The position numbers and the translations under genes are program-made. The notes below the pieces were generated by a model, which made no database searches, was not told the origin of the DNA, and saw only the letters and a list, made by a program, of their open reading frames with translations. DNA of 64,000 nt, from NCBI GenBank assembly GCA_038741355.1, contig JAVYLC010000002.1, positions 8,738 to 72,737 of the forward strand, in the 5' to 3' direction. The DNA is from Nitrososphaerota archaeon. GTDB taxonomy: Archaea; Thermoproteota; Nitrososphaeria_A; Caldarchaeales; Calditenuaceae. Below are positions 35,000-53,393 of this stretch, piece after piece; the first letter of the stretch is position 1; every line of letters starts with the position of its first letter.

Positions 35000-35278
35000 A
35001 TGCCCCACCGCATTGAGCTCTTCGTCGGCAGGTGCCCCCTGTGTGAGGAGGCGCGCAACATTTTGGAGGTGGGGAAGTGTTCTGGCTGCAGACTCGACAT
35101 ATACGACTTAGCGGTACAGTACGCCTCTATCCGAGAGAAGATCCGAGAATACGATATAAGATGTGTCCCAACCATCGTGATAGACGGGAAAATTAAGGTC
35201 GAAGGGCTTCCTCAATTCACATTTATCTGCAGCGAAGAGCTATACCGGCAACTAGAAATGAACTATCGTTTCAGATAG
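35000..35278 (+). CDS. glutaredoxin/thioredoxin-like small protein
   Basis: CPLC redox motif near the N-terminus. RCVPTIVIDGK is a Trx-fold cis-Pro loop. Confidence 0.55.
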   Translation: MPHRIELFVGRCPLCEEARNILEVGKCSGCRLDIYDLAVQYASIREKIREYDIRCVPTIVIDGKIKVEGLPQFTFICSEELYRQLEMNYRFR

Positions 35279-35387: not shown

Positions 35388-36533
35388 CTAACTCGATACG
35401 CTGTGCATGGTGGACCGGCTAGGCTCATATATGCATGCTGGATCAGTAGCTAATGGGTCCCCGCATTCAGCGTAGGCCCTTGCCCTAGAGCCGCCACATA
35501 TTGACTTATACTCACATACACCACAGCGTCCAGTGAACAATCCCTGGCGCATCTTAACGAGTAGGGGGTGCATCCTATATATCTCTACGAGGTTCCTAAC
35601 CCTGATATTACCAAGAGGGAAGGGTAGGAAACCTGAAGGGTAAACAATCCCGTTGTGGGAAACAAATACTATTCCAAAGCCGTCTCTCGTTGGTGTTATG
35701 GTCTGGGCGGGGCCGCGTTTAGGATCACCCATAAGTGAATGTAGCCTATCCACCAACTCGTTATAGAGCGGGCCCTCATACTTTGCCCCATTAGCCCTCT
35801 CCAGCATAGCCCTCCGGTAGAATGGCGCCTCTACGGTACGCAGCTGCAAACCATATCTCGATACGTCGACCAGAAATTGAACCACATCCTCATATTCTTG
35901 CGGCGTTATGTCGAGCTCCTTTACGGCGCGTCCAGTCACAATAAGGAAGAAGACCTCCCAAATCCTCACCCCTAAGTCCGTGATCAGTTTTACGATCATT
36001 GGAAGTTCTCTAAGATTCTTCCTCCAGATAACTGTGTTGACCTGTACTACAAGTCCAGCTTTAACAGCTCTTGATATTGCCTCTACTGTGGCTCCAAAGT
36101 TACCGGGTGTTTGCCTCATCTCTTCATGTGTTTCGGCGGTTGCACCATCAAGACTTATAGATATGCTCCTCACACCTGCCTCCTTGAGCCTATTTAGGAT
36201 CTCATCCGATAGGTTTGATGATACGGCCGGCGAGACTGCCACAGGAACACCATACGAGTTTGCATAGTCAATCAATTCGAAGAGGTCTTTGCGCATCAGA
36301 GGGTCGCCACCTGTTATCACAAGGAATGGTGAGGGGTGTCCAAAGGCAGCTACCTGTTCGATAAGGAGCTTCCCTTCACTAGTTGTTAGCTCACCCGGCA
36401 GGGGCTTAAGTATTGCATCGGCGCGACAGTGCTTACATGCTAACGGGCAGGCCTTGGTCGACTCCCAGAAGACCAAGAGAGGTGCTTCATGAAACCTGCT
36501 TATCCAATCTTCAATCCTCATAAACACATACAC
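35388..36533 (-). CDS. radical SAM protein with C-terminal SPASM/twitch domain (AhbD/NirJ-like heme-pathway radical SAM)
   Basis: CPLACKHC is the radical-SAM CxxxCxxC motif. ITGGDPLM follows. A C-terminal Cys cluster CGVCEYKSICGGSRARAYAECG...ACIY is present. It is the last gene of the heme operon. Confidence 0.75.
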   Translation of the reverse strand: MYVFMRIEDWISRFHEAPLLVFWESTKACPLACKHCRADAILKPLPGELTTSEGKLLIEQVAAFGHPSPFLVITGGDPLMRKDLFELIDYANSYGVPVAVSPAVSSNLSDEILNRLKEAGVRSISISLDGATAETHEEMRQTPGNFGATVEAISRAVKAGLVVQVNTVIWRKNLRELPMIVKLITDLGVRIWEVFFLIVTGRAVKELDITPQEYEDVVQFLVDVSRYGLQLRTVEAPFYRRAMLERANGAKYEGPLYNELVDRLHSLMGDPKRGPAQTITPTRDGFGIVFVSHNGIVYPSGFLPFPLGNIRVRNLVEIYRMHPLLVKMRQGLFTGRCGVCEYKSICGGSRARAYAECGDPLATDPACIYEPSRSTMHSVSS

Positions 36534-36536
36534 ACC

Positions 36537-37025
36537 TCATGAGAACCTGAGTAGTGTACCCATCGCAATAATAGCGAGGGTCAGACATAGGGTAGCCCAT
36601 CCAACCACCAACATCTTTAACCTATCCCTAGAGTATTCTGGCCCATCCTCCATCTCGTAGAGCCTTCTACCTAGTCTCGAGTGTAGAGGGAGCATAAGGA
36701 GCACGGCTACGGTTAAGATCATCTTGATCAGCAAAATCATGCCCAAGTGTGTTGCATAGAAGGCCAGACTTGTAAGCAACTGGACTCCAAACCCCCGTGT
36801 TAAAAGGATGAACAGCCCAGACACCACGGCTAGGTAGAGAGAGTACCTCATAGGTCTCTGAATAGCTCTCCCAACAACTCCCAGCATCTTCGTGGCCTCT
36901 ACAGGGGGGTAGGTCTTTCTTAAACGCCTGTTTACAATCACGGTGAAGAGTATTCCCCCAACCCACAATGATGCGCTGACTATGTGAACTAGCTTAATAA
37001 TTGTTAGAACAGTTAGGATGCTCAA
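36537..37025 (-). CDS. 4-TM membrane protein, HemJ-like (protoporphyrinogen oxidase HemJ / CopD-like)
   Basis: 162 aa. The N-terminal helix carries KLVHIVSASLWVGGILF, which resembles the HemJ signature (H...W.GG.F). Its coordinates overlap hemE (37022-37025) on the same strand. Confidence 0.4.
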   Translation of the reverse strand: MSILTVLTIIKLVHIVSASLWVGGILFTVIVNRRLRKTYPPVEATKMLGVVGRAIQRPMRYSLYLAVVSGLFILLTRGFGVQLLTSLAFYATHLGMILLIKMILTVAVLLMLPLHSRLGRRLYEMEDGPEYSRDRLKMLVVGWATLCLTLAIIAMGTLLRFS

Positions 37026-38065
37026 CCCTCCTCTCCTCTCCCCCCGTATTCGTGGACAAACTCTACAAGGGCTGCCACGTTGTCGGGCGGAGTCTCTGGG
37101 AGTACCCCATGGCCCAGGTTGAAGATGTGTCCAGGCCTATCTCTCGTCGCATCTATTATCTTGCCCGCCCTTGATACAATAATATGCCGGTCCGCTAGGA
37201 GGACGGCGGGGTCTAGGTTGCCCTGTATCCCCACATCGTATCCTATGCTTCGCCAAGCCCGGTCTATCTCTATGCGCCAGTCAATACCTATCACGTCGGC
37301 GCCCGTTCTCTTCAAAAGCTCAGGCATCCCCGCACTGCAGGTAGTGAAGTATATCACTGGCACCCCTCGATTTTTTATATCTTCGACAAGAGTCTTCACG
37401 TATGGAAGAACACTCTCTCTGTAGTCTGACGGCGACAGACTCCCAGCCCAGCTATCGAAGAGCTGGATAACCCGAGCACCTGCAGCAACCTGTAATTTAC
37501 AGTATTGCGACACAGCCTCACTGACGGTCTCCATAAGCACCTTCCAGAGGTATGGTCTCCTATACATTAGGGACCTCGCTAAGGGAAAATCTCTGGACAC
37601 CACATCGCCTACCATGTAACAAGCGGTGGTGAATGGCCCGCCCGCAAAGCCTATTATTGGTACTCTATCATTAAGGATTGACCTGGCGAGACGTATCGTC
37701 TCGTAGACGTAGCCGACCTTAGAGCTGTCAAAGTTCTGTATATCTTTGACGTCTCCCTCATCCCTAATGGGTTTCTCGACCACTGGGCCTTCACCATCAA
37801 CTATTCTAAACGACACGCCTAAACCCTCTAGGGGGACGGCTATGTCGGCGAATAGTATTGCTGCATCCACACCGAATTTTAAAACTGGAAGAGCGGTTAG
37901 CTCCGCAGCGGCTTCTGAGTCTTTGCATAGTGATAGTAGGTCCCGATCCCTCCTCAACCCCCTATACTCGGGAAGGTATCTCCCAGCCTGTCTCATCAGC
38001 CAGATGGGCTTCTTATCTGTCTTTTCCAGCCTACACGCTCTAAGAAGCCTGTCATTCACGCCCCT
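37022..38065 (-). CDS. hemE: uroporphyrinogen decarboxylase
   Basis: NDRLLRA...PIWLMRQAGRYLPEY is the HemE N-terminal signature. The start was trimmed to a GTG near 38065. The track ORF extends to 38113. Confidence 0.85.
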   Translation of the reverse strand, partial: RGVNDRLLRACRLEKTDKKPIWLMRQAGRYLPEYRGLRRDRDLLSLCKDSEAAAELTALPVLKFGVDAAILFADIAVPLEGLGVSFRIVDGEGPVVEKPIRDEGDVKDIQNFDSSKVGYVYETIRLARSILNDRVPIIGFAGGPFTTACYMVGDVVSRDFPLARSLMYRRPYLWKVLMETVSEAVSQYCKLQVAAGARVIQLFDSWAGSLSPSDYRESVLPYVKTLVEDIKNRGVPVIYFTTCSAGMPELLKRTGADVIGIDWRIEIDRAWRSIGYDVGIQGNLDPAVLLADRHIIVSRAGKIIDATRDRPGHIFNLGHGVLPETPPDNVAALVEFVHEYGGRGEEG

Positions 38066-39371
38066 CACCGATGACGCGCAGGGCTTCAGTGAACGCTTCA
38101 ATCGATCGCTCAATTACTGCTTCTTCGTGTGAGGCTGAAACGAATATCGTCTCGAATGGTGAAGGTGGGAGTAGAACTCCTCTCCTAGCCATTTCCCAGA
38201 AGAGCCGCGTGAAGCTCCCCCTATTACTGCTTAGCACATCACTGTAATTCTCGATCTTCTGTCTGTCTGTGAAGAATAAGCTAATCATCGAGCCAACCCT
38301 ATTTATGAGCATGGTGACGTTTGAGTTATTTGCAGCCTCGACTATCCCCCGCTCCAGCATCGAAGATAGTCGCTCAAGCTTCTCATACACGTGGGGTGTG
38401 AGGAGGTCGATGGTGGCTATGCCGGCCGACATAGAGATAGGGTTCCCTGAAAATGTCCCCGCTTGATATACTCTCCCAGTCGGAGCCAAAAGCTTCATTA
38501 TTTCTTCTCTACCACCAACAGCTCCTATCGGGAATCCCCCACCAATGATTTTCCCCAAGCAAGTAAGATCGGGGTGGACACTGTAAAGCTCTTGGACCCC
38601 ACCCCTTGTAATCCTGAACCCTGTTATGACCTCGTCGAATATTAGCAGGGAGCCGTACTTCTCCGTTATATCTCTGAGTGCCTCAAGAAAACCTTGTTTA
38701 GGAGGTACCACCCCCATATTTCCCGCTATGGGTTCAACTATTACACAGGCGATCTCGGGCCCGGCTTGTCTGAAGACTCTTTCCACCACGCTGGTATCGT
38801 TATAGGGAACTGTTATCGTGTCCTTGGTTATCTCTTCGGGGATACCGTCTGAGGCCGGCAGCGAGTAAGTCGCTAGCCCTGAGCCGGCCTTTGTCAGGAG
38901 GTAGTCAACGTGGCCGTGGTAGCATCCGTCGAACTTCAGGACCTTCCTCCTGCCGGTGTAGGCCCTCGCCAGGCGGATTGCCGTCATGGCTGCCTCAGTC
39001 CCCGAATTAACGAATCTGACAAGCTCGATCGATGGGAAAGCCTCGGCTATCCGCTCAGCTAGCTCTATTTCGAGCTCGTTTGTAAGACCGAGGATCGATC
39101 CACGCTCTAATGCCTCCTGCACAGCCAGTAAAACCTCTCTTCTAGCATGGCCGAGTATGAGGGACCCCCACCCGCAGATTAAGTCCACGTATTCGTTCCC
39201 GTCAGCGTCGTAGATGTAGGGGCCCTCCCCTCTCCTTACAATCAGGGGCTCACCCCCAACAGACATGAAGGACCTTACCGGACTGTTGACCCCCCCAACA
39301 AGGATTTTCATGGCTCTCTTATACTTCCTGTGGGATTCCTCTATCCGTGGGCTAGATCCTTGGGCGGTCAT
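38052..39371 (-). CDS. hemL: glutamate-1-semialdehyde 2,1-aminomutase
   Basis: Class III aminotransferase fold. The PLP-lysine region FDEVITGFR is present. 439 aa. Confidence 0.9.
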
Positions 39372-40360
39372 GCCTTAAGCCACCCCGCAACTTGCGGCGC
39401 AAAATATGTGATTATTATGTCGGCTCCAGCTCTCTTTATGGAGGTCAAAAACTCCATGACCACTCGCTTTTCATCAATCCACCCCTTCTCCGCCACCGCC
39501 TTTATCATTGAATACTCCCCACTTACGCTGTATGCGGCTATCGGCACATTGAACTTGGAGCGCGCCCTAACGATCACGTCCAAGTAGGCTAGGGCCGGTT
39601 TAACCATAACAATGTCCGCCCCCTCTCTCAAGTCTAACTCTATCTCCCGCATGGCCTCTCTGATGTTTGACGGATCCATCTGGTAGCTACTCCTGTCGCC
39701 GAATGATGGTGAGGAGTATGCTGCCTCCCTGAAGGGGCCGTAGAGTGCGGAGGCATACTTGGCGCTATAACTCATTATAGCTACATCGGTGAATCCAGCT
39801 TTGTCGAGGCCCTCCCTGATCGCGAGTACCTGGTGATCCATCATGGCACTTGGCGCCACAACATCGACACCAGCTTCCGCGTGGGAGACGGCTATTCTCG
39901 CCAAGATCTCGATGCTCTCATCATTGGCGACGCGCCCCTCCTTTATTACTCCGCAATGTCCATGAATTGTGTACTGACATAAACAGACATCAGTTGCCAC
40001 TAGTAGGTCCCCAACATTCTCTTTAACTGCCCTCACAGCCTTTTGAACTATCCCATCCGCCCTGTATGCACTCGAGCCTAGCTCATCCTTGGACGATGGA
40101 ATGCCGAAGACGAGGATTCCAGGGATTCCAAGCCTCTTTGCTCTGGAAGCCTCTACAACTAACTCGTCTAACGAAAGGCGGTAGATGCCCGGCATAGAAG
40201 GTATCTTCTCCCTCCCAACCAGTGCCTCCTTGACGAAGACTGGGTAGATTAGATCGTTTACCGAGAGCTCCGTCTCTCTGATCATCTCCCGTATCTGAGC
40301 GGTCCTTCTAAGCCTCATCGGCCTCGCACGGCCCCTTCTCTCGGCGATTCTTTTTAGCAT
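39368..40360 (-). CDS. hemB: porphobilinogen synthase (delta-aminolevulinate dehydratase)
   Basis: Catalytic Lys regions VKPA and MSYSAKYAS are present. 330 aa. Confidence 0.9.
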
Positions 40361-41112
40361 GGGTTCAGCCCCCTCACTAGCGCCTCAACAACCCCCCCGG
40401 CAGTGTGTCTTTCGGCTACTATGTGAGCCCTCAAACCGAGTTCCTCGGCAGCCATAGCCGTCACAGGTCCTATGCAACACACTATCACATCTTCTCTGAG
40501 GGCCCCACCATGTGAGTCTAAAGCTCTCTTCAACGCCTCAGCGGTTGAGGGGCTCGTCAATATCACCACGTCAAACTGGGGGAGCGTTGCTGGGCAGTCT
40601 ACTGTGCTGACTTTATATGCAGGCACCTGCTCTACAACAGCGCCCCTCATTTCAAATATCCTTGCCATTAGATCGTCCACACCCTCGCTCCTCACGAGTA
40701 ATACCCTCTTACCGGAAACGTCCGGTAGCTGTTCCGCCAAAGTTTTTGTCAGGTATTTGGAGGGAGTGAAGGAGACTTTTAGGCCTTTCTTTTCAGCCTC
40801 TTTCGCCGTGGCTGGGCCAACTGCTGCAACCCTACCCCTTATTCGACTGAGGTCTACGCCCCTATTGGTAGCCCTCTCTACGAATGCCCTAACACCTGCC
40901 TTACTGGTGAAGACTATCCAGTCATAGCCGTCCAGCCTGCTGAGAACGCTCTCTAGAGCAGACCAATCAGTCGGCGGCCCCCTTTGTATAAGTTCGAGGT
41001 GAATAGGCTCCCCTCCCAGCTCGTAGATGATTCTGCTCAGCTCATCTGCTTCCTCCCTTGGTCTTAGGAAGAGGACCCTTCTGCCCCTGAGCGGTTTTAT
41101 CAATGCTCCCAC
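40354..41112 (-). CDS. hemD: uroporphyrinogen-III synthase
   Basis: 252 aa with the two-lobe HemD pattern. Located between hemC and hemB. Confidence 0.7.
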
Positions 41113-42044
41113 CCTTTTGACGCTACTTGTGCCTTCAACGTCACGATGCGTTCGGCAAGCCTGTAGCCAATCGCCGCCGCCTCTGAAACCTCACCACACT
41201 CGACAAGCCTGATGATTTCCCAAGAGTCAGGTAGAGAAACCATACCATCCAATAACAGCCTTCCATCCTCTATACGCGCGTAAGCCGCTACAGGAATGTC
41301 GCATCCACCCCCAATTCTAGCCATGAAGGCCCTCTCTGCCTCAACGCAGATCCTGGTCTCGCGGTGATCTATTCGTTCCAATACTTGGAGGATGTTCGCG
41401 TCATCCTCCATGGCTTCTACAGCGAGGGCACCCTGACCGGGAGCTGGTAGTACCGATTGAACTGGTAAGAATTCCGACACCAAGTCAGCTAGACCGAGCC
41501 TCTTTAACCCCGCGAATGCAAGCACGATGGCATCTAAATTAAGTTCCGAAAGCTTCCTTATCCGGGTGTCAACATTCCCCCTAATCTCTACAATATGCAG
41601 GTCAGGTCTTATGGATAGGAGCTGAACCTTTCTCCTAATACTGCTGGTTCCGACCCTTGCGCCTTCAGGAAGCTCTGATAATCTTTTCCCCTGCCTCGAA
41701 ATTAATACGTCACGAGGATCCTCCCTAGGGGGGACGGCGGCGATTATCAACCCCTTTGGCAGCTTAGCCGGCATATCCTTCATACTATGTACCGCGAAGT
41801 CTATCTCTCCCTCTAAGAGTCGCACTTCTATTGCCTTGACGAAGGCATCCTTGCCCTTCTTGGGCCGACCCTCCTTGAAGTCCTCGTCACCCTCAGTAGC
41901 AATGGGTACGATCTCGAACCTCAGGCCAGGCGAGATCGATCGGAGAGTCTCCACTACCGATTCAGTCTGGTTGATTGCGAGTCTACTCCTCCTACACCCA
42001 ACCCTAATTACTCGGCTCAGCAAGCCCGAACAAATCCCTAGCAA
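41100..42044 (-). CDS. hemC: hydroxymethylbilane synthase (porphobilinogen deaminase)
   Basis: LRIGCRRSRLA...SIRRKVQL matches HemC N-terminal motifs. The dipyrromethane cofactor Cys region GGGCDIPV is present. Confidence 0.9.
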   Translation of the reverse strand: MLGICSGLLSRVIRVGCRRSRLAINQTESVVETLRSISPGLRFEIVPIATEGDEDFKEGRPKKGKDAFVKAIEVRLLEGEIDFAVHSMKDMPAKLPKGLIIAAVPPREDPRDVLISRQGKRLSELPEGARVGTSSIRRKVQLLSIRPDLHIVEIRGNVDTRIRKLSELNLDAIVLAFAGLKRLGLADLVSEFLPVQSVLPAPGQGALAVEAMEDDANILQVLERIDHRETRICVEAERAFMARIGGGCDIPVAAYARIEDGRLLLDGMVSLPDSWEIIRLVECGEVSEAAAIGYRLAERIVTLKAQVASKGWEH

Positions 42045-43251
42045 GCTTCACGTAAAGCTCCCCCTTCTCTGATGCTGCCAGCCTCCTGAGCCGTACAGTG
42101 GGTTCATGTAACAGCTTGTTGACTATGCTCTTTGACAGTGCCTCCAACACGCTAGCATCTCTTTCTTGAGACCCTGTTAGGAGTCTGAGAGCCTTAGAAA
42201 GTTCCCTCTGCCTCAACATCTCCGCCCTCACTCTCACTGATCTAATTATATCATCCGCACTAATGGCACGCAGCCATGCAAAAAGCCTATCAGCCTCCTT
42301 CTCTAACATCTCATCCACGTCCACATTACCGTTAGAGAATCTGGGCGCAGGGGCAAGCGCTTTCAAGTCTTCTATATCGTATAGCTCGACAAAATCATTC
42401 GTGGAAAGGGTAGGGTCGATGTTTCTCGGAACCGAGAGGTCAATCATCACGAGCCTTTTCCCGTCAGCGAAGCCGTTTAACACTCTATCGTCTATCACGT
42501 AGTTTTTTGACGACGTGGCTACTATCACACCATCAACCATGCCTAAGATTTCATGAATGGAGTCTAACCCCGTGACGGACCTCACAAGCCTCTTCGCGTG
42601 CTGAGGCACCGATGATGGATTCCTCGTCGCGACGTATACCTCTTCAAACCCGGCCTGGGCAAGCCCCTCGATTACGGCCTTTCCAATCTTCCCCGCACCT
42701 ACAACTAATACTGGCCGTGACGCGCCGAGCCTTGCCTTCAATAACTGGATCGCGAGTGTGCCTATGTTTATCGAGTCATCTATTCCCACAGCCCTCCTTA
42801 TACGTCTAGCCGCGTTGTAGGATCTGACAAAGAGTTCTTTCACGACCTGACTGTACTTGCCTACGCCATGAAATTTCGCGTCCCTAACTTGTTGAAGTAT
42901 TTGTGTCTCGCCCGGCGCAAGTGAGTCGAGCCCACATGCCACTTCTATCAGATGTTTTATCGCTTCCCTCCCCTCCATCATGTAAAACTGGCATTCCGAC
43001 ACGCCCACCCCAGCGAAAAGTGCTACGATTCTGCGTCGCGGCGCGTCCAGCTTATCAGTAACCAAATAAATCTCAAACCTATTACACGTGAATAGTATGG
43101 AAAGTCCGTAGCTGTCGCAGACCGTATATAAAGCTTGAATCACTCTGTCAAGCGTAAGATCGATGGCTAACCTTTCTAGCACATCCAATGAACAAGTCCT
43201 AAAATTTGATCCTATGAGAAGTATATCTAGCCTAGACTCCTCCACAGCCAT
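42004..43251 (-). CDS. hemA: glutamyl-tRNA reductase
   Basis: The catalytic motif FTCNRFEIY (CNR.E) is present. Rossmann motif VVGAGKIGK. 415 aa. Confidence 0.85.
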   Translation of the reverse strand: MAVEESRLDILLIGSNFRTCSLDVLERLAIDLTLDRVIQALYTVCDSYGLSILFTCNRFEIYLVTDKLDAPRRRIVALFAGVGVSECQFYMMEGREAIKHLIEVACGLDSLAPGETQILQQVRDAKFHGVGKYSQVVKELFVRSYNAARRIRRAVGIDDSINIGTLAIQLLKARLGASRPVLVVGAGKIGKAVIEGLAQAGFEEVYVATRNPSSVPQHAKRLVRSVTGLDSIHEILGMVDGVIVATSSKNYVIDDRVLNGFADGKRLVMIDLSVPRNIDPTLSTNDFVELYDIEDLKALAPAPRFSNGNVDVDEMLEKEADRLFAWLRAISADDIIRSVRVRAEMLRQRELSKALRLLTGSQERDASVLEALSKSIVNKLLHEPTVRLRRLAASEKGELYVKLARDLFGLAEPSN

Positions 43252-43757
43252 GCAGGATAAGTACTTCCACTGTTCCTATATTACTTTTCACTTTCAACAA
43301 AAAAATTCAGTGTTGTTGTGGAATCCACAACACAACTACCTATCTACTTACCCATGAATAAAGAATGAGGACCTAAATATTGAGGGAAGGTTAAGGTGTT
43401 TCGGCCCGTTATACCTCTACGCTTCTCATAGAGCTTTAAAAATATATTTGGTGAACTTCAGGTTGGTTGTCCCTCCAGTTTATAAGAGGTCGGCCCACAA
43501 AAAGTCTAGACCAGCCTTTCACACCGCCGGGGCTTCTCAAAGAGAGCGACCATGGCTCCAGAGCATGGGTAAAGTAGAATACAGATAGAAGTGAGCAGAG
43601 CAGAATATATCAGACTAGGCTGGATGGTCTGGAACCCGTCTATCGTTGGGCTGCTTATCGTCTTTTAGCCATGTCTGCCAGCGGTATTCATGTGGGCAGA
43701 TTTTGAGTGGCTTTAGCGTTAGGGGGGTTGTAAAGGTTATATAACAGGCCCAATAGT

Positions 43758-44231
43758 TTAAGGACTAAAAACTCTTCCCCGTGTTCTAAGAAAGGTGGCG
43801 ATGATGATTATTTGAATTATGATAAGTAGATCATATGAGACGATGAACGGTGGACAGAGAAATGGACAGCTGAACTGCGGAGTGCTTGCTATTGGAGTTA
43901 TGCCGAAGAGGTATAGGGCAAAAGCCTCTACAGGTATTCCTATAGACGGCCCCGTGAGAGGATTGAGCAAGAGGAGGATAAGATACAACATAGCCCAGTA
44001 AAAAGCCAGCCTATAACCTGTACGGGGCTTGAAAAACAGAAGACCGCCTATAGACACTTGGATGATTATAAAAGCGATCAACGCTGTGGCATGGTGTGTC
44101 TTAGGATTGTCAAACCACAATAGTCCATCGAATGCAAGAATAACAAAACTTACTAAAATGGATAGAGCTAACAAAACTCTAATAAGAGTAAAAGTTTTGC
44201 TGAGGCTCATTAGGTTACCAACCTGATCCAC
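43758..44231 (-). CDS. hypothetical 4-TM membrane protein (low GC)
   Basis: 157-aa hydrophobic ORF. It is the first low-GC gene after hemA. Confidence 0.35.
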   Translation of the reverse strand: MDQVGNLMSLSKTFTLIRVLLALSILVSFVILAFDGLLWFDNPKTHHATALIAFIIIQVSIGGLLFFKPRTGYRLAFYWAMLYLILLLLNPLTGPSIGIPVEAFALYLFGITPIASTPQFSCPFLCPPFIVSYDLLIIIQIIIIATFLRTRGRVFSP

Positions 44232-44505
44232 TAATATAAATTTTTCCCGTGATCTAACTTTTAAGAATCACACCATTTTTATATGCGTAGATATTGTGCG
44301 TAAATCCTCTAGTTTACTAGTTACAAAAACTCCGGCTAACCATATTTCAGTGGGATGCTGGTCCAACCCAAGACTCACTATGCTGACTTACATAGGGAAG
44401 ACAGGGAGTTATAACAAATATGCGCGCTGGAGCATATATTGAAGAAATTGTTAAATAATCCAATGTGTAATGACGGTATCCCGGTCTTAAGGACATAGCC
44501 ATCTT

Positions 44506-45107
44506 TAACATTGGCTCTGTTAACTTAAGGCTTTTGGTCTAGGGCTGTGGTTGTTTGGTCATGTTTGTTGGGCAGAGGACGGCTTTACCCGTGGTCCTCT
44601 ACGGGCTTTACCTCGTAGCCCTAGGCCTAGGCTTCGGGAGTGCAGCTATGGCTCTTAAACCTTTCGTAGACAGGAGTCATGTGGCTGTCTGGAAGTGGGT
44701 TCAGAGGCTTCTAGGATTCAGGAGGATCTTCGGGGCTAGGTGCAGGGTATCCCTATCCTCTTGGATGAGACGGCTGTCATGGTTAAAGGCCTCCTAGCAT
44801 GGGTGTGGGTTGCATATGAGCCTTTCAGCAAAAGAACCCTGGTATATTGGAGCATGCGCTAGGCTTGGTCTAACCCATCACAGATACAGGTTTGGGGATT
44901 GGCTCTTCCAAGCAATTGAGAGGGCTGTACAGATGCTCAAGGACAGGACGGAAAACTTCGACGACTACTTCCCATGCAGAAAGAAAGCATGCATTCTAGG
45001 GCATGTATGGAGCTGGCTGAACCTATTCCACATATTCAACCAGCCAGAGACGCTACATCTGATGAAGACCATAACAGGGGTGATAGAGATGGCTTAAGTT
45101 AACAGAG
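44506..45107 (+). mobile_element. degenerate IS6-family insertion sequence, copy 1
   Basis: Imperfect terminal inverted repeats: ggctctgttaacttaagg at 44508-44525 and cttaagttaacagagcc at 45090-45106. Flanked by TTAACATT at 44498-44505 and 45111-45118. Confidence 0.6.
44555..45097 (+). pseudogene. IS6-family transposase, frameshifted (two ORF pieces)
   Basis: The pieces 44555-44797 and 44810-45097 align with the intact neighbouring transposase (FVDRSHVAVWKWVQR versus FRVSHQSVRGWFLR). This is the IS6 HTH signature VS/DHSTIyRWVQk. Confidence 0.6.
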
Positions 45108-45118
45108 CCCTTAACATT

Positions 45119-45768
45119 GGGACTGTCAACTTAAGGCCACCCATGACCTTATCCACTTCTCTGATACCTTAGGCCTGTATGTTGGGGAGCATGTGTTGAA
45201 CTGTTTTATTCTTCTCTTGAGCTTGCTGAACCAAGACTCTATCGCGTTCCTCCTGCCGAATGTCTCTACCCTCCTCCTAAAGCCCAGAATCTTCATGGGC
45301 CATCGGTACCATGGAGCCCTATCCGTGTAGACGGTAGGGTTATTAGCGCACCTATCCCTAACCACCTCAAGGAACCTTATACACTCGGCTATCCCCCTAC
45401 CCCTAGATACCTGGACTGCCATCACCTCCCTAGCAGCCCATAGATAGGCCCTCCTGACGAGATTACGGATTACTATCGGCCCACGCCTACGCCTATCTAC
45501 AAGTGAGAAGGCCTCACCAGCCCTAAGGAACCAACCCCTAACAGACTGATGGCTCACCCTGAATCCTAGCTCTCCTAAGACCTCTGCAACCCCTCTAAGA
45601 CTGAGCCCCCTCCACATACATCCTGACAGCAAGCCCCCTAACCCATGAAGGATAACGCATACGAGGAAAGACACTTCTATCACCAAAGAAACCCATAAGA
45701 CGGCCTAGGCCGACCCCAACTCTATCCACCCCCAACTAATGGGAAGGCCCAGACCATAGACCTTAAGT
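45119..45768 (-). mobile_element. IS6-family insertion sequence, copy 2 (intact)
   Basis: Perfect 18-bp terminal inverted repeats: GGGACTGTCAACTTAAGG at 45119-45136 and CCTTAAGTTGACAGTCCC at 45751-45768. An 8-bp direct repeat TTAACATT flanks both sides, which is the TSD length typical of IS6. Confidence 0.7.
45126..45686 (-). CDS. IS6-family DDE transposase (short form, 186 aa)
   Basis: HTH motif LGFRVSHQSVRGWFLRAGE. TDRAPWY. C-terminal RRNAIESWFSKLKRR resembles the IS6 N.IE..H..IKRR catalytic E/K region. Confidence 0.65.
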   Translation of the reverse strand: MVIEVSFLVCVILHGLGGLLSGCMWRGLSLRGVAEVLGELGFRVSHQSVRGWFLRAGEAFSLVDRRRRGPIVIRNLVRRAYLWAAREVMAVQVSRGRGIAECIRFLEVVRDRCANNPTVYTDRAPWYRWPMKILGFRRRVETFGRRNAIESWFSKLKRRIKQFNTCSPTYRPKVSEKWIRSWVALS

Positions 45769-45827
45769 TGACAGTCCCTTAACATTTGAAGAAAAGCTTA
45801 AATCATAATGCAGAGGGATAGTTAAGT

Positions 45828-46163
45828 ATGGCTGACAAACCTATAAAGAGGCTGTTCTCATGGCTTTTACTAAGCACGAGGGGTGGACCTACACGTCTTC
45901 TAATACTTTTACTTCTCCGGAAAGGGTCAGCCAACGCTAATCAGATAGCGAATTCGCTTCATCTCCACTATAAAACTGTTCAATATCACTTGGAGGTTTT
46001 ATTGGAGAATAAGCTAGTCGAAGCTGATGACGTGAAATATGACGTAAAATATAGGTTATCCCCGCTCGTCCTTGCAAACATGGATGTTTTCGAGTCATTA
46101 ATAGATGAGATTTTCTCACATAGAGAAGAGAAGGTGAGTATAGTGTGGGACCTCTCTGGATAA
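45828..46163 (+). CDS. winged helix-turn-helix transcriptional regulator (ArsR-like)
   Basis: 111 aa. NQIANSLHLHYKTVQYHLEVLLENKLV is an HTH recognition-helix pattern. Confidence 0.5.
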   Translation: MADKPIKRLFSWLLLSTRGGPTRLLILLLLRKGSANANQIANSLHLHYKTVQYHLEVLLENKLVEADDVKYDVKYRLSPLVLANMDVFESLIDEIFSHREEKVSIVWDLSG

Positions 46164-46429
46164 CTAATATTGTAGTATCTATCATGATTGTTTTAGGTCT
46201 TTTATACTCGCTAAGAAACTATCTAATAACGCGAAGGCTTGCCAGAACCAAATTTACAAACGCTCTTGTCGCATTAACGGCGATTTTCTTACTCCAAAAC
46301 GTTTACGCTGCATACATGTTCTACGTGCTCTCTTGGAGCTATGATGTGGAGATAGCTTATCCTCTTCTAATGCTAAATCTTCTCGGCCTAGCTGGCTTCA
46401 GCATATTCGTATATCTTTCACACGTATAA
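46145..46429 (+). CDS. small membrane protein (3 TM)
   Basis: Hydrophobic 94-aa ORF. Overlaps the regulator gene by 19 bp. Confidence 0.3.
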   Translation: MGPLWITNIVVSIMIVLGLLYSLRNYLITRRLARTKFTNALVALTAIFLLQNVYAAYMFYVLSWSYDVEIAYPLLMLNLLGLAGFSIFVYLSHV

Positions 46430-46790
46430 AGCCAGTATTTGACAGAAACATTACAAAACTCGGGCCAGTATGGCGGCTCATCACTAATTTTCAAAGACGC
46501 AGGAACAATTAGGGTGAGACCTACATAGAGAGGATGGGGTTTATAGGTGTGATGGAGAGTGGGGAATGTATTCGTCTGTCCTTGGACCTCCTAATTGGAA
46601 GCTTTCGTTTATATGTGTCGCAGTGTCGATAAGACTTCGCAGGCACTATCGTAATAGATCAGCTAGCACGTATGCTCACTACAGCCCGGCCCACTACATC
46701 TCAAGCCAAGGATACGCTGTATGTCATACATTTTTAAGGTTTTGAAGATTTGGGGGAAAGATTAACTTTAGGTCTGAAGTTTTATCTGAG

Positions 46791-47942
46791 ATGTTGAATT
46801 ACTTAAAGAAGCGTGAAGTGTTTATCTCTGTTCTACTTCAGCTCGCTCTAGCATTCTTCTTCGCTCATGGATATGATTTCCGTGTAAACTATCTGGCTGG
46901 AAGAAATATTGTTTTAGGTTTGTCTCCTTACCAGGGCGGATATTTAGAGGGGCCGTTGGCTGTAGGGTATGGCCCGTATGTGCAGGGTTTGGGTGAAACT
47001 CCTTTGTGGGCCCTTTACGCAGGACTAGCGTACATTGCATCAGCAGGCAACTTATTCCTCTTTAACTTGATTCTAAAGATACCTATCATCATTGCGAATG
47101 TAGCCCTCAGCTTTCTTACAATGAAAAAAGGTGGCGACAGTTTCTTCTTCCTCTACAATCCATACCTTCTCTTAGTCTCTGCAGTATGGGGAAAACCTGA
47201 TAATGTGGCAGTATTGCTCGCAGTAGCATCAATTACCATATTGCATAGATACTATGGCTCTTTGTCGGTGGCTGTATCGGTGATGATCAAGCCGCTGGCT
47301 CTTGTAATGGCGCCATCATTCATACTGGCTTGGTGGAAAGAGAAGGAAAAAATATTCATCGCTTTTGTAGCGTTGGTTCTGATGTTTTTTACACCTTTCG
47401 TCTTATTGAACTGGAGGTTGGAGACTGTCGTCTATGGATTTCCTAACTGGTTTAGATCAGTTGGTGGGATATCTCCGTTTGATTTTGTAGAAGCAGTTTA
47501 CGGGACATCAACCGTACCCACGTGGCTTGAGCCTATATCATATCTTTCGGCGGTCTCTCTAGCGGTTATGGTTATGTTGGCGATTAAGCGCCCACCGACG
47601 AGTATTGATGGTATATTCCGTCTAGGTCTTGTCTCTGCATCTCTTTTCTTTAGCCTTCGCCCATGGGTGTCGGAGCAAAACCTTCTCATCATTTTGTCGC
47701 TTTTTATCATTGTCTGCGGCAGACTGCCTTCCCGGCTGCTTTGGATAATTCCTTTGATATTCGCTGGTCTTAATCTATCGATACCACAACAGCTATATCT
47801 TTTATATCCCTCAATAATTGAGGATCTTATTGCTTTAAATCATCCTATCAGGTACTGGCTTAAGTTCGTAGTGTCGGTAGCCTGGGTTATTGTTCTATGG
47901 ACGGTGCTGGTTAAAAAGTGTCTGTGGAAGTGGTGGATTTAA
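46791..47942 (+). CDS. polytopic membrane protein, possible GT-C-type glycosyltransferase (DUF2029/PMT-like)
   Basis: 383 aa with ~10 TM segments. An acidic first loop (HGYDF) and W-rich periplasmic loops are present. No definitive motif was found. Confidence 0.35.
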   Translation: MLNYLKKREVFISVLLQLALAFFFAHGYDFRVNYLAGRNIVLGLSPYQGGYLEGPLAVGYGPYVQGLGETPLWALYAGLAYIASAGNLFLFNLILKIPIIIANVALSFLTMKKGGDSFFFLYNPYLLLVSAVWGKPDNVAVLLAVASITILHRYYGSLSVAVSVMIKPLALVMAPSFILAWWKEKEKIFIAFVALVLMFFTPFVLLNWRLETVVYGFPNWFRSVGGISPFDFVEAVYGTSTVPTWLEPISYLSAVSLAVMVMLAIKRPPTSIDGIFRLGLVSASLFFSLRPWVSEQNLLIILSLFIIVCGRLPSRLLWIIPLIFAGLNLSIPQQLYLLYPSIIEDLIALNHPIRYWLKFVVSVAWVIVLWTVLVKKCLWKWWI

Positions 47943-48595
47943 AGATAGTCGTTAGAGGATTAGCGGCTGTACATATTTTATGGGGGCTATCCCTTCTACT
48001 AGAGCCTACTAGGTATGTTTCTAAACCTATCATACCTGCTTTATTCGCGTCTATACATTTTATAATCTTCCTCCTACTGTTGACTCATGAGAAGTACGGA
48101 GCTGTTTTGGGGTCTGTTTTTCTAACCTACTATTGGTTTTTTGTTAAACCTATCGCGCCGATAGCTGAGCCTCAAACAGTTGGGATACTTAGCATCACAC
48201 TATCCATTCTAACACCATATGCCCCAAAACTGTCGCCAGATAAACATGGAACAATTCAGGATGCTCTACTGAGACTTGGCTTGGCCTATCCCTTTATTGA
48301 GTGGGGGTTAGATGCTTTCCGTAACCCTCTTCATTTCAAATCATATCTTTCTGGAAATGTTATAACATCTTTTCTTATACCGACAGGTCTCCTCGACCTG
48401 GCTGTATTATGTCTTGGTTTATTTGAAGTTTCTCTATCGCTTCTAATTTTGACAGGTTTTAAGAGGCGTGTAGTCTCGTTCCTGACATTCTCTGTATTGA
48501 TTGTTTTTTCCTTAGTGGCCGGCTATCCACTCGCGCTACCTCAGAACATAGCTCTCATGGGCGTTGCATATATTTGGCTTAAGCCATCTTCTTGA
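47918..48595 (+). CDS. membrane protein (DoxX-like, 5-6 TM)
   Basis: 225-aa hydrophobic ORF. Overlaps the upstream gene by 25 bp. Confidence 0.35.
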   Translation: MSVEVVDLKIVVRGLAAVHILWGLSLLLEPTRYVSKPIIPALFASIHFIIFLLLLTHEKYGAVLGSVFLTYYWFFVKPIAPIAEPQTVGILSITLSILTPYAPKLSPDKHGTIQDALLRLGLAYPFIEWGLDAFRNPLHFKSYLSGNVITSFLIPTGLLDLAVLCLGLFEVSLSLLILTGFKRRVVSFLTFSVLIVFSLVAGYPLALPQNIALMGVAYIWLKPSS

Positions 48596-49958
48596 ACTTA
48601 TGATCTGTGTAGAATTCCCATGGCTTCAGCAATATATAAAATGGTCCAATCTTTTTCCTCAGCTTGGCTTGGGTCACAGCTTTCCACATGCCATACTTGA
48701 GTTTCTCTATGCTGAAGTCGTGTTTAAAGAGTAGGCGATGGTCATAGCCGTGAAGGGGTTTCTCCCATTCCTCTACAAGCATCTTATCTTTTACCATTTC
48801 ATAAAGTTTGGTTCCAGGAAGCGGGTAAGGTACTGTCATGGAGAAATAGTCAAGGGGGAGGCTTGACGCCATTTTTATTGTTTTTAGCATTGTCTCGTTT
48901 GTCTCACCAGGATATCCGAGTATGAAAAACGCGCCAACTTTTATGCCGGCCTTAACACCCGTATAAACAGCTTTCTTAGACTGCTCAACTGTCAGTCTTT
49001 TATTCATGAGTTGAAGCGTCCTATCATCGCCTGCCTCGAGTCCGAAAATTATTTTATGGCATCCTGCGCGTTTCATGGCTTTAGCGACCTCTGCGTCGAA
49101 CAGATCAGCCCTAGCCAGACACTCCCATAGGATGTCCAGCTTCCTATCCATTATTTCGCGACATAGCCGTAGAACATGTCTTTTATTGGCTATAAACAGC
49201 TCATCAGCAAACCATATCCTTTCATAGCCAAACTTATACCGTATCTCCTCCATCTCGTCGACTATGTTTTCAGGGCTTCTTGTACGATAAACGCGGCCGT
49301 AGTCTGGCCGCCAGCAAAAACCGCATGAAAAAGGGCAGCCCCGCGAGGCTATCATCGAGGTCATGGTGTATCCGTAGTTTCGGAGATAGTACCGCTTATA
49401 GTGATCGTTATCATATAGATCCCTAGCCGGGAAGGGTAGGTCGTCTAAGTTTTTTATGAGAGGCCTTTGCCCCGTGAAGAAGTGACTGTCACTGTTGGCT
49501 GGAACAGCTTGGGTGGTCTTTTTTAAAAATTGCCCAGAAATGTGCAGGCCTTTAACACGCTGGAATTTCATGCTGTTATCTAATTCGGTCATTAGCTCAA
49601 GCATTGCTTCCTCACCTTCACCCTGAACAGCGATATCGAATAGGCCGAGGAATTTTGCCGGATATGCTGAAGGCATGGGTCCACCGGCGACAAGTAGCTC
49701 TACCTTCTCCCTTAGCGCAGAGGCTATATCCAATGCCGGCTTCACCATCGAAAGCATGCTGTAGATGCCTACTACCCTTGACTGCGCCGCTTCTCTTATA
49801 ACGTCTTCTATTTTTTTGAATGTACAGTCAATGATTTTGACTTTGTATCCATGCATTCTAATATACGATGCAATATATCCTATGCCCAGCGGTGGAAACT
49901 TAAAAGATCTAGACCTACCGTCATCGAAGTATGGAAAGATGAGCGCTAAGTCATTCAA
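48579..49958 (-). CDS. B12-binding domain radical SAM protein (class B rSAM)
   Basis: N-terminal cobalamin-binding Rossmann-like region (LGIGYIASYIRMHGYKVKIID). The radical-SAM motif CPFSCGFC follows. 459 aa. Confidence 0.8.
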   Translation of the reverse strand: MNDLALIFPYFDDGRSRSFKFPPLGIGYIASYIRMHGYKVKIIDCTFKKIEDVIREAAQSRVVGIYSMLSMVKPALDIASALREKVELLVAGGPMPSAYPAKFLGLFDIAVQGEGEEAMLELMTELDNSMKFQRVKGLHISGQFLKKTTQAVPANSDSHFFTGQRPLIKNLDDLPFPARDLYDNDHYKRYYLRNYGYTMTSMIASRGCPFSCGFCWRPDYGRVYRTRSPENIVDEMEEIRYKFGYERIWFADELFIANKRHVLRLCREIMDRKLDILWECLARADLFDAEVAKAMKRAGCHKIIFGLEAGDDRTLQLMNKRLTVEQSKKAVYTGVKAGIKVGAFFILGYPGETNETMLKTIKMASSLPLDYFSMTVPYPLPGTKLYEMVKDKMLVEEWEKPLHGYDHRLLFKHDFSIEKLKYGMWKAVTQAKLRKKIGPFYILLKPWEFYTDHKFKKMA

Positions 49959-50730: not shown

Positions 50731-50881
50731 GCAGCGGCTCCTGTCTTTAGTAGATAATGTTTTTCCGAAATTTCACGATGTTAAAAATGTTTAAACATCG
50801 TTTAAATGCAGATGCCCTCATTTTCTATTACTCCTAATTTGGGAAAACTCTTTTGTCCTCCCTTCCTCCATTACAGCGTTA

Positions 50882-53288: not shown

Positions 53289-53393
53289 GTAAGAGTTGCC
53301 AATTACTGATCATAAATGGTTTTTAAAGCATTTTCCCGACACTTCCATTTATTGGTAGTTTCAGAATTTTTTTAAGCCTCAAAGCAGTAACCA

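Follow-up and report, generated by a model that had tools for sequence, protein, structure and literature searches.

A candidate siroheme-bypassing, coproporphyrin-type heme b operon in a Caldarchaeales-type archaeon

How does an archaeon arrive at heme b if its heme operon contains hemE and ends in two genes that encode neither HemN, HemF, HemY, HemG, nor HemQ? This question is raised by an eight-gene operon in a 64-kb window (the whole stretch of DNA analyzed here, 64,000 nucleotides) from a Nitrososphaerota MAG of the Caldarchaeales type, a hot-spring archaeon. A first-pass annotation, which had rightly set the last two genes apart from these five families, proposed a mixed route. With moderate confidence, we read the locus as a heme b operon following a siroheme-bypassing, coproporphyrin-type route, in which an AhbD-type radical SAM enzyme would act last and a small membrane protein would serve as the oxidase.

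Operon organization and early heme genes

All features described here lie on the minus strand. The operon had been delimited correctly and consists of eight consecutive ORFs at 35388–43251 in the order hemA, hemC, hemD, hemB, hemL, hemE, a gene for a 162-aa membrane protein, and a radical SAM gene. In maximal-ORF coordinates, the first six junctions are overlaps of 41, 13, 7, 4, 62, and 4 bp, and the final one, between the membrane protein and radical SAM genes, is a 3-bp gap. With the publicly annotated starts of an identical contig, the overlaps amount to 20, 4, 7, 4, 50, and 4 bp, and the gap at the last junction to 9 bp. Hence, the tight packing by overlaps of 4–60 bp, originally described for every junction, applies to six of them (4–62 bp in maximal ORFs) but not to the last. 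The eight-gene order recurs in independent assemblies and, thus, did not arise by chance. A putative operon promoter region, read directly from the letters, is located at 43277–43330. It contains a TATA-like TAATATA at 43283–43277, 26–32 nt 5′ of the hemA ATG, and the palindrome TTGTGGA-T-TCCACAA at 43330–43316. A relative with 86% identity retains both putative elements; at 65%, another relative still has the TATA block.

Genes were identified by Pfam and NCBIfam profiles with curated cutoffs, and five of the six hem genes exceed their NCBIfam cutoff, hemD being the exception. Glutamyl-tRNA reductase is encoded by hemA (42004–43251, 415 aa, ATG start; TIGR01035, 266 bits versus a cutoff of 210) and contains the GlutR_N, Shikimate_DH, and GlutR_dimer domains. 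It is followed by hemC for hydroxymethylbilane synthase (maximal ORF 41100–42044; TIGR00212, 340 versus 164 bits), which probably starts at the TTG at 42023, as in the gene call on the identical contig. The uroporphyrinogen-III synthase gene hemD (40354–41112) carries no methyltransferase fusion; it was identified by Pfam HEM4 (PF02602, 179 bits) and by uroporphyrinogen-III synthase models, the latter below their cutoffs. Porphobilinogen synthase is encoded by hemB (39368–40360; NF006762, 499 versus 297 bits) and glutamate-1-semialdehyde 2,1-aminomutase by hemL (38052–39371; TIGR00713, 595 versus 527 bits).

The sixth gene, hemE (maximal ORF 37022–38113, with a likely start at 38101 or 38059), encodes a uroporphyrinogen decarboxylase (UROD; TIGR01464, 393 versus 303 bits). 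The entire protein aligns with solved URODs (E=1e-82), including the blocks RQAGRYLPEYR, DAAILFxDI, CYMV, and FNLGHG. The operon, therefore, holds a genuine archaeal UROD, as had been assumed.

The last two genes

The last gene (35388–36533, likely start 36527 or 36521) encodes a radical SAM protein of the TIGR04053 family (508 bits versus a cutoff of 395). Its next-best NCBIfam families are AhbD (TIGR04545, 295 bits, below the curated cutoff of 500), NirJ2 (203), AhbC (157), and NirJ (155); AhbD is, hence, the best-scoring characterized family. The protein is 71% identical to P0010 of Pyrobaculum calidifontis, whose gene adjoins hemL in an Ahb cluster. Besides the TIGR04053 gene and hemL, this cluster comprises a uroporphyrinogen methyltransferase (SUMT), hemD, a precorrin-2 dehydrogenase (PC2-DH), hemB, a fused AhbA/B (above cutoff), hemC, and a second, AhbC/NirJ1-like radical SAM protein; hemL has been listed as PCAL_1717 and ahb-nirJ1 as PCAL_1716 (Storbeck 2010, Table 1; PMC3004389). 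The window thus shares with Pyrobaculum the terminal radical SAM enzyme and its clustering with early hem genes. Otherwise the gene sets are reversed, as Pyrobaculum has SUMT, PC2-DH, AhbA/B, and the AhbC-like protein without hemE or the membrane protein.

The radical SAM protein contains a CX3CX2C motif and a C-terminal CX2CX5CX20C motif, both invariant in 119 homologues; the latter is described as the auxiliary-cluster motif of NirJ, AhbC, and AhbD (PMC10114771). Of the SPASM cysteine cluster originally assigned to the protein, the cysteines are present, but the Pfam SPASM domain is not detected in the operon's sequence. The AhbD score and the Pyrobaculum orthology speak against an unrelated SPASM maturase. 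Judged by orthology, the operon ends with the gene of an archaeal AhbD-type radical SAM heme synthase, in agreement with its first assignment. To our knowledge, no member of TIGR04053 has an assayed activity. Decarboxylation of coproporphyrinogen by this protein, an option of the first-pass annotation, is disfavored by its 71% identity to the Pyrobaculum enzyme, for which coproheme is the substrate implied by the gene cluster.

The gene between hemE and ahbD (36537–37025) has a TTG start codon overlapping the stop of hemE (TTGA), with GGAGAGGAGGG just before it. Its 162-aa product has four transmembrane helices, as first described; the AlphaFold model (pLDDT 97) shows four long helices. The protein is an unclassified member of the CopD/HemJ/DUF2269 superfamily. 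A search of representative proteins retrieved 177 relatives; H14, W21, G23, G24, G70, K101, and H115 are near-invariant, and the two histidines have predicted positions close to opposite faces of the membrane. The protein itself has no Pfam match, and its NCBIfam CopD match is weak (E=0.003). Among 141 relatives, 130 match CopD (PF05425, best E=8e-22), the best Pfam family for the wider relatives, and 46 match HemJ/UPF0093 (PF03653) below threshold; the clan matched contains both HemJ and the membrane urate oxidase.

HemJ (PgdH2), a protoporphyrinogen IX dehydrogenase, is a b-type hemoprotein of the membrane that works independently of oxygen (PMC13564367). It resembles the window protein as a small polytopic member of the same superfamily, with a first helix of the K-x2-H-x6-W-x-G-G type and a heme-pathway gene context. 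The HemJ-like motif reported earlier is real, but it is superfamily-wide rather than specific for HemJ. Membership in the HemJ family does not hold, as the window protein lacks a PF03653 match, and CopD and DUF4149 match more of its relatives than HemJ does. Moreover, its presumed substrate is coproporphyrinogen as opposed to protoporphyrinogen, and no HemJ was recorded across 89 surveyed archaeal genomes (PMC4231631). Compared with CopD, the protein is sub-threshold, has half of the helices of full-length CopD (profile positions 148–251 of 295 matched), and is encoded in a heme operon with no linked copper genes.

In nine lineages, the radical SAM gene is immediately preceded by the membrane protein gene; eight of these also have hemE upstream, and the order hemE, membrane gene, ahbD is preserved down to 33–35% identity of the membrane protein. 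The wider family shows no link to heme genes (about 40 high-GC bacterial and low-GC archaeal loci), and in one archaeal sub-clade the gene adjoins cofG/cofH. The protein is a candidate (copro)porphyrinogen oxidase or else a candidate membrane partner of AhbD. It may be a new porphyrinogen oxidase, and that it acts on coproporphyrinogen is plausible.

The proposed route and its alternatives

Because HemE and an AhbD-type last gene are combined in one operon, a coproporphyrin-type route that bypasses siroheme is proposed, running from uroporphyrinogen III via coproporphyrinogen III, coproporphyrin III, and coproheme to heme b. By homology, HemA, HemL, HemB, HemC, and HemD supply uroporphyrinogen III, which HemE decarboxylates to coproporphyrinogen III. 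The six-electron oxidation of the latter would take place at the membrane, by the translationally coupled 162-aa protein; this is the weakest step of the scheme. After iron insertion, AhbD would turn coproheme into heme b, oxidatively decarboxylating two propionates to vinyl groups, and would take the place of HemQ/ChdC. CtaB would then form heme o from heme b. Its gene (11072–11974; UbiA family, TIGR01473, 259 versus 210 bits) had been recognized correctly as that of heme o synthase and is unlinked to the operon, 23 kb away.

Iron insertion is omitted from the first mixed-route reading. No chelatase gene is present within the 64-kb window, and the enzyme would be encoded outside it. The obvious candidate is the CbiX-type class II chelatase of sister lineages, whose gene (~170 aa) immediately follows ahbD; among the best 120 matches, this cluster-linked subfamily has no member from the window's own lineage. 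A contig of Ca. Caldiarchaeum subterraneum holds hemE, the membrane gene, ahbD, and cbiX as a module with 4-bp overlaps, adjacent to ctaB and an operon for a heme-copper oxidase. Loci L006/L007/L023, L022, and L024 share this order. Uroporphyrinogen III is four chemical steps away from heme b, and the module holds four genes. Like CbiX-S/CfbA, the sister-lineage protein has a PF01903 match and the conserved histidine motifs GHG and GGEH; however, it scores far below the CfbA cutoffs (33 versus 120 bits) and has an insertion of ~45 residues. Canonical CbiX-S inserts no metal into coproporphyrin in vitro (PMC11568245).

Porphyrinogens oxidize spontaneously in air, so a dedicated oxidase is perhaps dispensable. 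The AhbD-terminated coproporphyrin-type route could be right with a membrane protein that is not the oxidase, coproporphyrinogen being oxidized spontaneously or by an unlinked enzyme; we regard this as rather unlikely, albeit deserving serious weight. Since each AhbD decarboxylation leaves one electron in need of an acceptor, the protein may then take up this electron at the membrane or offer AhbD a docking site. It may also pass heme on to membrane-located enzymes (CtaB, the oxidase) or handle copper for the oxidase in a CopD-like manner. In locus L021, the membrane gene is paired with the radical SAM gene, and hemE is absent within 10 kb, which links the protein as closely with the AhbD step as with oxidation. 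However, the AhbD-type genes of Pyrobaculum and of an actinobacterium have no adjacent homologue of the membrane protein, and AhbD is, hence, not generally dependent on it. In no lineage is an alternative oxidase candidate linked to the operon, and the pathway logic demands exactly one further enzyme—in L080, four genes face four steps.

That the organism is an ordinary siroheme-dependent archaeon, with SUMT, PC2-DH, sirohydrochlorin ferrochelatase, AhbA/B, and AhbC encoded elsewhere, is improbable. Herein, ahbD would simply sit with the early hem genes as in Pyrobaculum, the membrane protein would be unrelated, the sister-lineage CbiX would be a sirohydrochlorin chelatase, and hemE would be redundant, recently acquired, or otherwise used. 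This agrees with the siroheme-dependent route of most archaea (PMC3004389, PMC11459464), with sirohydrochlorin as the normal substrate of CbiX-type chelatases (PMC11568245), and with the radical SAM protein being most similar to Thermoproteales Ahb-cluster genes. A dispensable hemE is, however, hard to reconcile with an equivalog-level gene that keeps its operon position and its stop–start codon overlaps even where the HemE proteins of different lineages have diverged to 47–49% identity. Apart from the AhbC match of the operon's own radical SAM protein, homologues of SUMT, PC2-DH, AhbA/B, and AhbC are absent from the 64-kb window, and they are likewise absent from the flanks of related loci (up to 10 kb on each side); in Pyrobaculum, all are found within 10 kb. 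Furthermore, an actinobacterial hemE–TIGR04053 pair shows this radical SAM family at work downstream of HemE. Still more doubtful is a protoporphyrin-type route, already among the options of the first-pass annotation, in which a HemN-like radical SAM enzyme would make protoporphyrinogen IX from coproporphyrinogen III for a HemJ-like membrane oxidase, and a chelatase would insert iron into protoporphyrin IX. HemJ, the only characterized porphyrinogen oxidase of the superfamily, does use protoporphyrinogen IX, in functional coupling with coproporphyrinogen oxidase (PMC13564367). Against this stand the lack of HemN-family similarity in the NCBIfam scan, the close Pyrobaculum counterpart, to which coproheme is supplied by its pathway context, and the occurrence of TIGR04053 in an actinobacterial cluster of the coproporphyrin-dependent gene set (hemY, hemH, hemQ).

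Relation to other HemE-containing systems

Thermoplasmatales (Thermoplasma, Picrophilus) are likewise archaea with hemE; their ahb-nir genes are absent, and their heme route has been called unclear (PMC3004389). They differ from the window lineage by phylum and gene set: their HemH is of the bacterial type, and no AhbD has been reported for them.

The preferred coproporphyrin-type reading has its nearest parallel in the coproporphyrin-dependent (CPD) pathway of Gram-positive bacteria, where AhbD serves organisms without other Ahb enzymes and is the proposed oxygen-independent coproheme decarboxylase (reviewed in PMC13564367, PMC10114771). In a Nanopelagicaceae locus (L013, the actinobacterium mentioned above), hemA, hemC, hemD, hemB, and hemL are clustered with hemE, and the TIGR04053 gene directly follows hemE as in a CPD variant with AhbD; hemY, hemQ, and hemH are 2–5 kb away. 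These HemY/CgoX, HemH/CpfC, and HemQ/ChdC genes are found neither in the window nor in the loci of its archaeal relatives. Instead, hemE and ahbD of the archaeal operons are separated by the gene of a CopD-superfamily membrane protein, and sister lineages add the CbiX-type chelatase; the CPD pathway is described as consisting of soluble enzymes throughout (PMC13564367). The combination of HemE with AhbD, initially considered an under-described variant, is, hence, known from Gram-positive bacteria, but no description for archaea was found in the literature searched. What is new is the archaeal occurrence of the HemE and AhbD route, together with its two accessory genes.

Operon architecture and uroporphyrinogen decarboxylase

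The minus strand of the window is filled between 35388 and 43251 by eight same-strand ORFs: hemA, hemC, hemD, hemB, hemL, hemE, a gene for a 162-aa membrane protein, and a radical SAM gene. All six hem genes are strongly matched by Pfam and NCBIfam models, and five of them exceed the curated NCBIfam cutoff. The identity of hemD is given by Pfam HEM4 (179 bits) together with uroporphyrinogen-III synthase models scoring under their cutoffs. HemE matches TIGR01464 with 393 bits (cutoff 303), compared with just 103 bits for its MtaA/CmuA methyltransferase relatives. The best match among solved uroporphyrinogen decarboxylases (URODs) in the PDB (E=1e-82) is full-length, spanning residues 2–339, and the blocks RQAGRYLPEYR, DAAILFxDI, CYMV, and NLGHG are in register with these structures. 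The initial reading of hemE as a genuine uroporphyrinogen decarboxylase is hence borne out, and the heme o synthase gene ctaB, placed at 11072–11974, is likewise confirmed (TIGR01473, 259 versus 210 bits). The window stems from a "Nitrososphaerota archaeon" MAG; among named taxa, Candidatus Caldarchaeales and Caldiarchaeum are its closest relatives, and the remainder of its gene content is typically archaeal (RadA, Pcc1, TiaS, ESCRT-III, RtcB).

The first-pass annotation had described tight packing with an overlap at every junction. Six junctions do overlap, by 41, 13, 7, 4, 62, and 4 bp for maximal ORFs and by 20, 4, 7, 4, 50, and 4 bp for the gene calls of the identical public contig, but the last one, between the membrane gene and the radical SAM gene, is a gap of 3–9 bp. 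The membrane gene, seventh in order, has a TTG start that overlaps the hemE stop, with a strong GGAGG-type element just 5′ of it. Upstream of hemA, within 43277–43330 (minus strand), a putative promoter with the TATA-like sequence TAATATA lies 26–32 nt 5′ of the hemA ATG and is itself preceded by the palindrome TTGTGGA-T-TCCACAA. Both elements are kept in the 86% relative (relatives are named by the identity of their membrane protein to that of the window), and the TATA block also in the 65% relative. The position of the TATA-like element suggests a leaderless operon transcript, and the palindrome could be the binding site of a regulator.

At the far end of the operon, a thioredoxin/glutaredoxin-like small protein that bears CxxC motifs is encoded convergently (35000–35278, plus strand), in the same place as in the 86% relative. 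In that relative, a 1213-aa POR/TPP/DUF6537 gene is found 0.5 kb from hemA. The 1215-aa ORF at 53394–57041 is its putative homologue, so that about 10 kb of lower-GC DNA (0.43–0.47) would intervene at 43300–53400 of the window. This stretch contains ORFs without family matches (44555–45686), a DoxX-domain ORF, a B12-binding radical SAM gene (48579–49958; best NCBIfam matches HpnJ, BchE, and a lipid B12-rSAM family, all under cutoff), and a GT2 glycosyltransferase (50882–52804). A block of GT2 glycosyltransferase, two unknown proteins, and B12-binding radical SAM gene adjoins the heme operon in the window (48579–52804) and in two of the related loci fetched for comparison, L006 (12833–17566) and L022 (9054–12352); in these 33–35% lineages it lies on the opposite operon side. 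The block may serve to modify membrane lipids or the cell envelope. A free-standing LAGLIDADG-domain ORF of 238 aa (57521–58237, plus strand) is found in the low-GC stretch immediately beyond the 1215-aa ORF.

The radical SAM protein

The radical SAM protein scores 508 bits against TIGR04053 (NCBIfam cutoff 395) and covers profile positions 3–366 of 366. Among the characterised families, AhbD ranks first (TIGR04545, 295 bits, under its curated cutoff of 500), followed by NirJ2 (203 bits), AhbC (157 bits), and NirJ (155 bits); the AhbD score is also far above those of the peptide-maturase SPASM families in NCBIfam. The motifs CX3CX2C and CX2CX5CX20C are formed by seven cysteines (Cys25/29/32 and Cys333/336/342/363) that do not vary among 119 homologues. 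For the NirJ/AhbC/AhbD group, the auxiliary-cluster motif at the C-terminus is CX2CX5CX20-21C (PMC10114771). A PDB search found no solved structure close to this protein.

Beyond the lineage, the closest homologues belong to Pyrobaculum and Thermoproteus (64–71% identity) and then to Caldivirga, Vulcanisaeta, and Pyrodictium (53–57%), with Actinobacteria next. The Pyrobaculum calidifontis protein P0010 is 71% identical to that of the window, and its gene directly follows hemL in a cluster for siroheme-dependent alternative heme biosynthesis (Ahb). This cluster further comprises uroporphyrinogen methyltransferase (SUMT), hemD, precorrin-2 dehydrogenase (PC2-DH), hemB, a fused AhbA/B scoring over the cutoffs of both curated models, hemC, and another radical SAM protein, with best matches to NirJ1 and AhbC. 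In Table 1 of Storbeck et al., PCAL_1717 is hemL and PCAL_1716 is ahb-nirJ1; the authors proposed Ahb-NirJ1 as the vinyl-group-forming enzyme (PMC3004389), a step now assigned to AhbD. Because P0010 sits at the Ahb-NirJ1/AhbD place in the Pyrobaculum cluster, TIGR04053 is read, from sequence and gene position, as the AhbD of Thermoproteales, and the window protein as the orthologue of the gene found where AhbD belongs in a genuine Ahb cluster. The earlier AhbD-type assignment agrees with this orthology, with the family ranking, and with the cysteines. A 63%-identical AhbD-type homologue from Calditenuaceae archaeon HR02 (P0042) carries the public label "putative mycofactocin radical SAM maturase MftC", probably a misannotation that would hide the heme pathway from automated reconstructions.

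The combination of HemE with an AhbD-type enzyme, initially put forward as an under-described hybrid late pathway, is indeed present, but bacteria already provide precedents for the idea, since both reviews and an actinobacterial locus show this pairing. AhbD occurs in coproporphyrin-pathway Gram-positives (PMC13564367, PMC10114771). A Nanopelagicaceae actinobacterium is such a case: its TIGR04053 gene directly follows hemE, and the pair is flanked by hemA-C-D-B-L and, on the opposite side at a distance of a few kb, by hemY, hemQ, and hemH.

The membrane protein

The 162-aa membrane protein has no match in Pfam, and none to HemJ (PF03653) even at E≤5; its close relatives reach 14–18 bits against PF03653, whose cutoff is 34. 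No match to CopD is obtained with Pfam PF05425, and the NCBIfam CopD model gives E=0.003 and 17 bits versus a cutoff of 195, so that by profile comparison the CopD relation is superfamily membership only. A word-based search retrieved three homologues and an exhaustive profile search 177, nearly all of them 150–170 aa long. Pfam matches among 141 relatives comprise CopD (130), DUF4149 (102), UPF0093, that is, HemJ (46), DUF2269 (22), DUF2214 (14), and the membrane urate oxidase N-terminal domain (8). The archaeal clade yields sub-threshold matches alone, spread across CopD, HemJ, and DUF2269, which places the protein, as far as profiles tell, in an unclassified branch of the CopD-like superfamily, not in HemJ. 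The HemJ likeness suggested at first did not survive the PF03653 family test, and the relatives match CopD more often than HemJ. A survey of 89 archaeal genomes records no HemJ (PMC4231631).

Nine positions are near-invariant in the 141-sequence alignment: H14, A18, W21, G23, G24, G70, G95, K101, and H115. With HemJ/PgdH2, the protein shares a small polytopic membrane architecture and a conserved His in the first helix, here H14. An AlphaFold model built on this alignment has four long helices and a pLDDT of 97; a first model from three sequences was dropped at a pLDDT of 63. Searching the PDB with the protein gave no specific match. From the distribution of Arg and Lys, both termini are predicted to face outward. 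In this topology, H14 would point toward the outer face, and the cytoplasmic face would hold H115 and three arginines that do not vary within the archaeal clade (R33, R60, and R135). The predicted arrangement is compatible with a candidate site for an anionic tetrapyrrole, by inference only.

Gene linkage and a proposed route to heme b

Heme synthesis as taught proceeds by a siroheme-dependent route in archaea, a coproporphyrin-dependent route in Gram-positive bacteria, and a protoporphyrin-dependent route elsewhere. In the present operon, an archaeon of the TACK group, the superphylum uniting Thermoproteota and Nitrososphaerota, joins HemE to the archaeal terminal enzyme AhbD. The three routes are taken as covering all heme-synthesising organisms, and the enzymes of the coproporphyrin pathway are described as all soluble (PMC13564367). 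In archaea, the siroheme route is dominant, with a complete coproporphyrin route limited to part of the Halobacteria and a single genome of Hydrothermarchaeota (PMC11459464); Thermoplasmatales with hemE and hemH were noted as unexplained (PMC3004389). A full-text literature search of incomplete coverage found no description of hemE with ahbD, or of this membrane protein, in Nitrososphaerota/Aigarchaeota, and no account of a CbiX linked to heme genes in Nitrososphaerota.

The gene order hemA-C-D-B-L-E, membrane gene, radical SAM gene is shared by the 86% relative (on a 1.55-Mb contig) and the 65% relative, is partly present in a 54% Caldarchaeales contig, and is found again in three 33–35% lineages (L006/L007/L023, L022, and L024) and in L080, a contig of Candidatus Caldiarchaeum subterraneum. 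In these 33–35% loci and the Caldiarchaeum contig, a CbiX-family protein of about 170 aa with conserved GHG and GGEH histidine motifs is encoded 3′ of the radical SAM gene. In L080, neighbouring genes of the set hemE, membrane gene, ahbD, and cbiX overlap by 4 bp or are separated by a gap of 1 bp. Beyond this four-gene module come a ctaB-like UbiA gene, genes of cupredoxin-like proteins, and an operon for a heme-copper oxidase (COX2, an 830-aa protein, COX4), and 4049–11089 of L080 is hence a heme-making and heme-using supercluster. Converting uroporphyrinogen III to heme b takes four chemical steps, which the four genes match; this is the strongest argument for the proposed pathway.

Homologues of the linked CbiX occur in Caldarchaeum and other Nitrososphaerota MAGs, in Nitrospiria, in Acidobacteriota, and in others. 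A Nitrospiria member of this subfamily lies beside a MerR/B12-binding regulator without heme genes, so only the archaeal clade shows the heme linkage. The best 120 matches included neither the 78-kb contig of the window nor the 1.55-Mb relative genome, and tblastn with CbiX proteins found none in the 64-kb window. Canonical CbiX-S does not metallate coproporphyrin, and a single CfbA substitution confers coproporphyrin I activity (PMC11568245). Two other small proteins were discarded as chelatases: the 130-aa ORF after ahbD in L010, with no Pfam match and no chelatase look, and a 178-aa protein of the Pyrobaculum cluster with FHGS/FHGP motifs, for which profile comparison with the CbiX alignment gave 0.15% probability.

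We lean slightly toward a coproporphyrin-type route that bypasses siroheme, with the membrane protein as best candidate for the oxidation step. HemE would act first, oxidation and iron insertion would follow, and AhbD, inherited from the archaeal Ahb pathway, would complete the sequence. The canonical coproporphyrin-dependent pathway (HemE, CgoX/HemY, CpfC/HemH, ChdC/HemQ) differs from this gene set, as HemY, HemH, and HemQ were found neither in the 64-kb window (Pfam scan of the larger ORFs; tblastn with actinobacterial queries) nor in the fetched flanks of the related loci. Two conserved accessory genes sit where oxidase and ferrochelatase activities are needed, and recognised versions of neither are linked. 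A protoporphyrin-type reading of the operon is very improbable. That the organism is an ordinary Ahb organism with its remaining genes elsewhere would fit the Pyrobaculum orthology of its AhbD, but we consider this quite improbable: SUMT, PC2-DH, and AhbA/B are missing from the window (same ORF scan; tblastn with Pyrobaculum queries), the AhbC query matched the operon's own radical SAM gene alone, and the fetched flanks contain none of the four.

The distribution of the membrane gene bears on its role. In L020/L021 it is paired with the radical SAM gene, and hemE is absent within 10 kb; its tightest partner is the radical SAM gene, not hemE. The same HemE-AhbD route, with a membrane protein that serves the AhbD step or heme hand-off, is compatible with this pairing, and we regard it as unlikely. 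In L008/L012 the membrane gene adjoins cofG/cofH, and neither the low-GC archaeal homologues nor about 40 high-GC bacterial homologues have heme neighbours; its heme link is therefore clade-specific. The contigs of the distant homologues P0126 and P0129 are too short for informative gene context.

Within the favoured coproporphyrin-type route, a more specific proposal is possible rather than probable: the 162-aa protein as a new membrane-bound, oxygen-independent coproporphyrinogen III oxidase. Four enzymes, namely HemE, this oxidase, a small CbiX-type chelatase with coproporphyrin III as its substrate, and AhbD, would then make up an archaeal pathway leading from uroporphyrinogen III to heme b. 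Such a mix of siroheme-dependent and coproporphyrin-dependent parts could be an evolutionary intermediate between both, in which the ancestral chelatase type and the terminal enzyme would be retained and siroheme bypassed via HemE. If the membrane protein is the oxidase, it would stand for a new class of coproporphyrinogen oxidases and give the CopD-like superfamily, large and poorly understood, its first functional assignment in this branch. Should the CbiX-type protein be the chelatase, it would tie ancestral small chelatases to ferrochelatase function, and if both hold, they would illustrate in a living organism the transition that has been proposed from the siroheme to the coproporphyrin route. 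The findings provide a plausible evolutionary intermediate and two concrete candidate enzymes open to testing, in genomes that automated pathway callers will score as heme-incomplete.

A luciferase-like, possibly F420-dependent oxidoreductase adjoins the heme cluster in two lineages (L006 11830–12768, L010 9362–10306), and in L012 (10528–13067) cofG and cofH, which serve F420 biosynthesis, lie immediately downstream of the membrane-protein homologue. These neighbours may be a coincidence or a hint at a redox partner.
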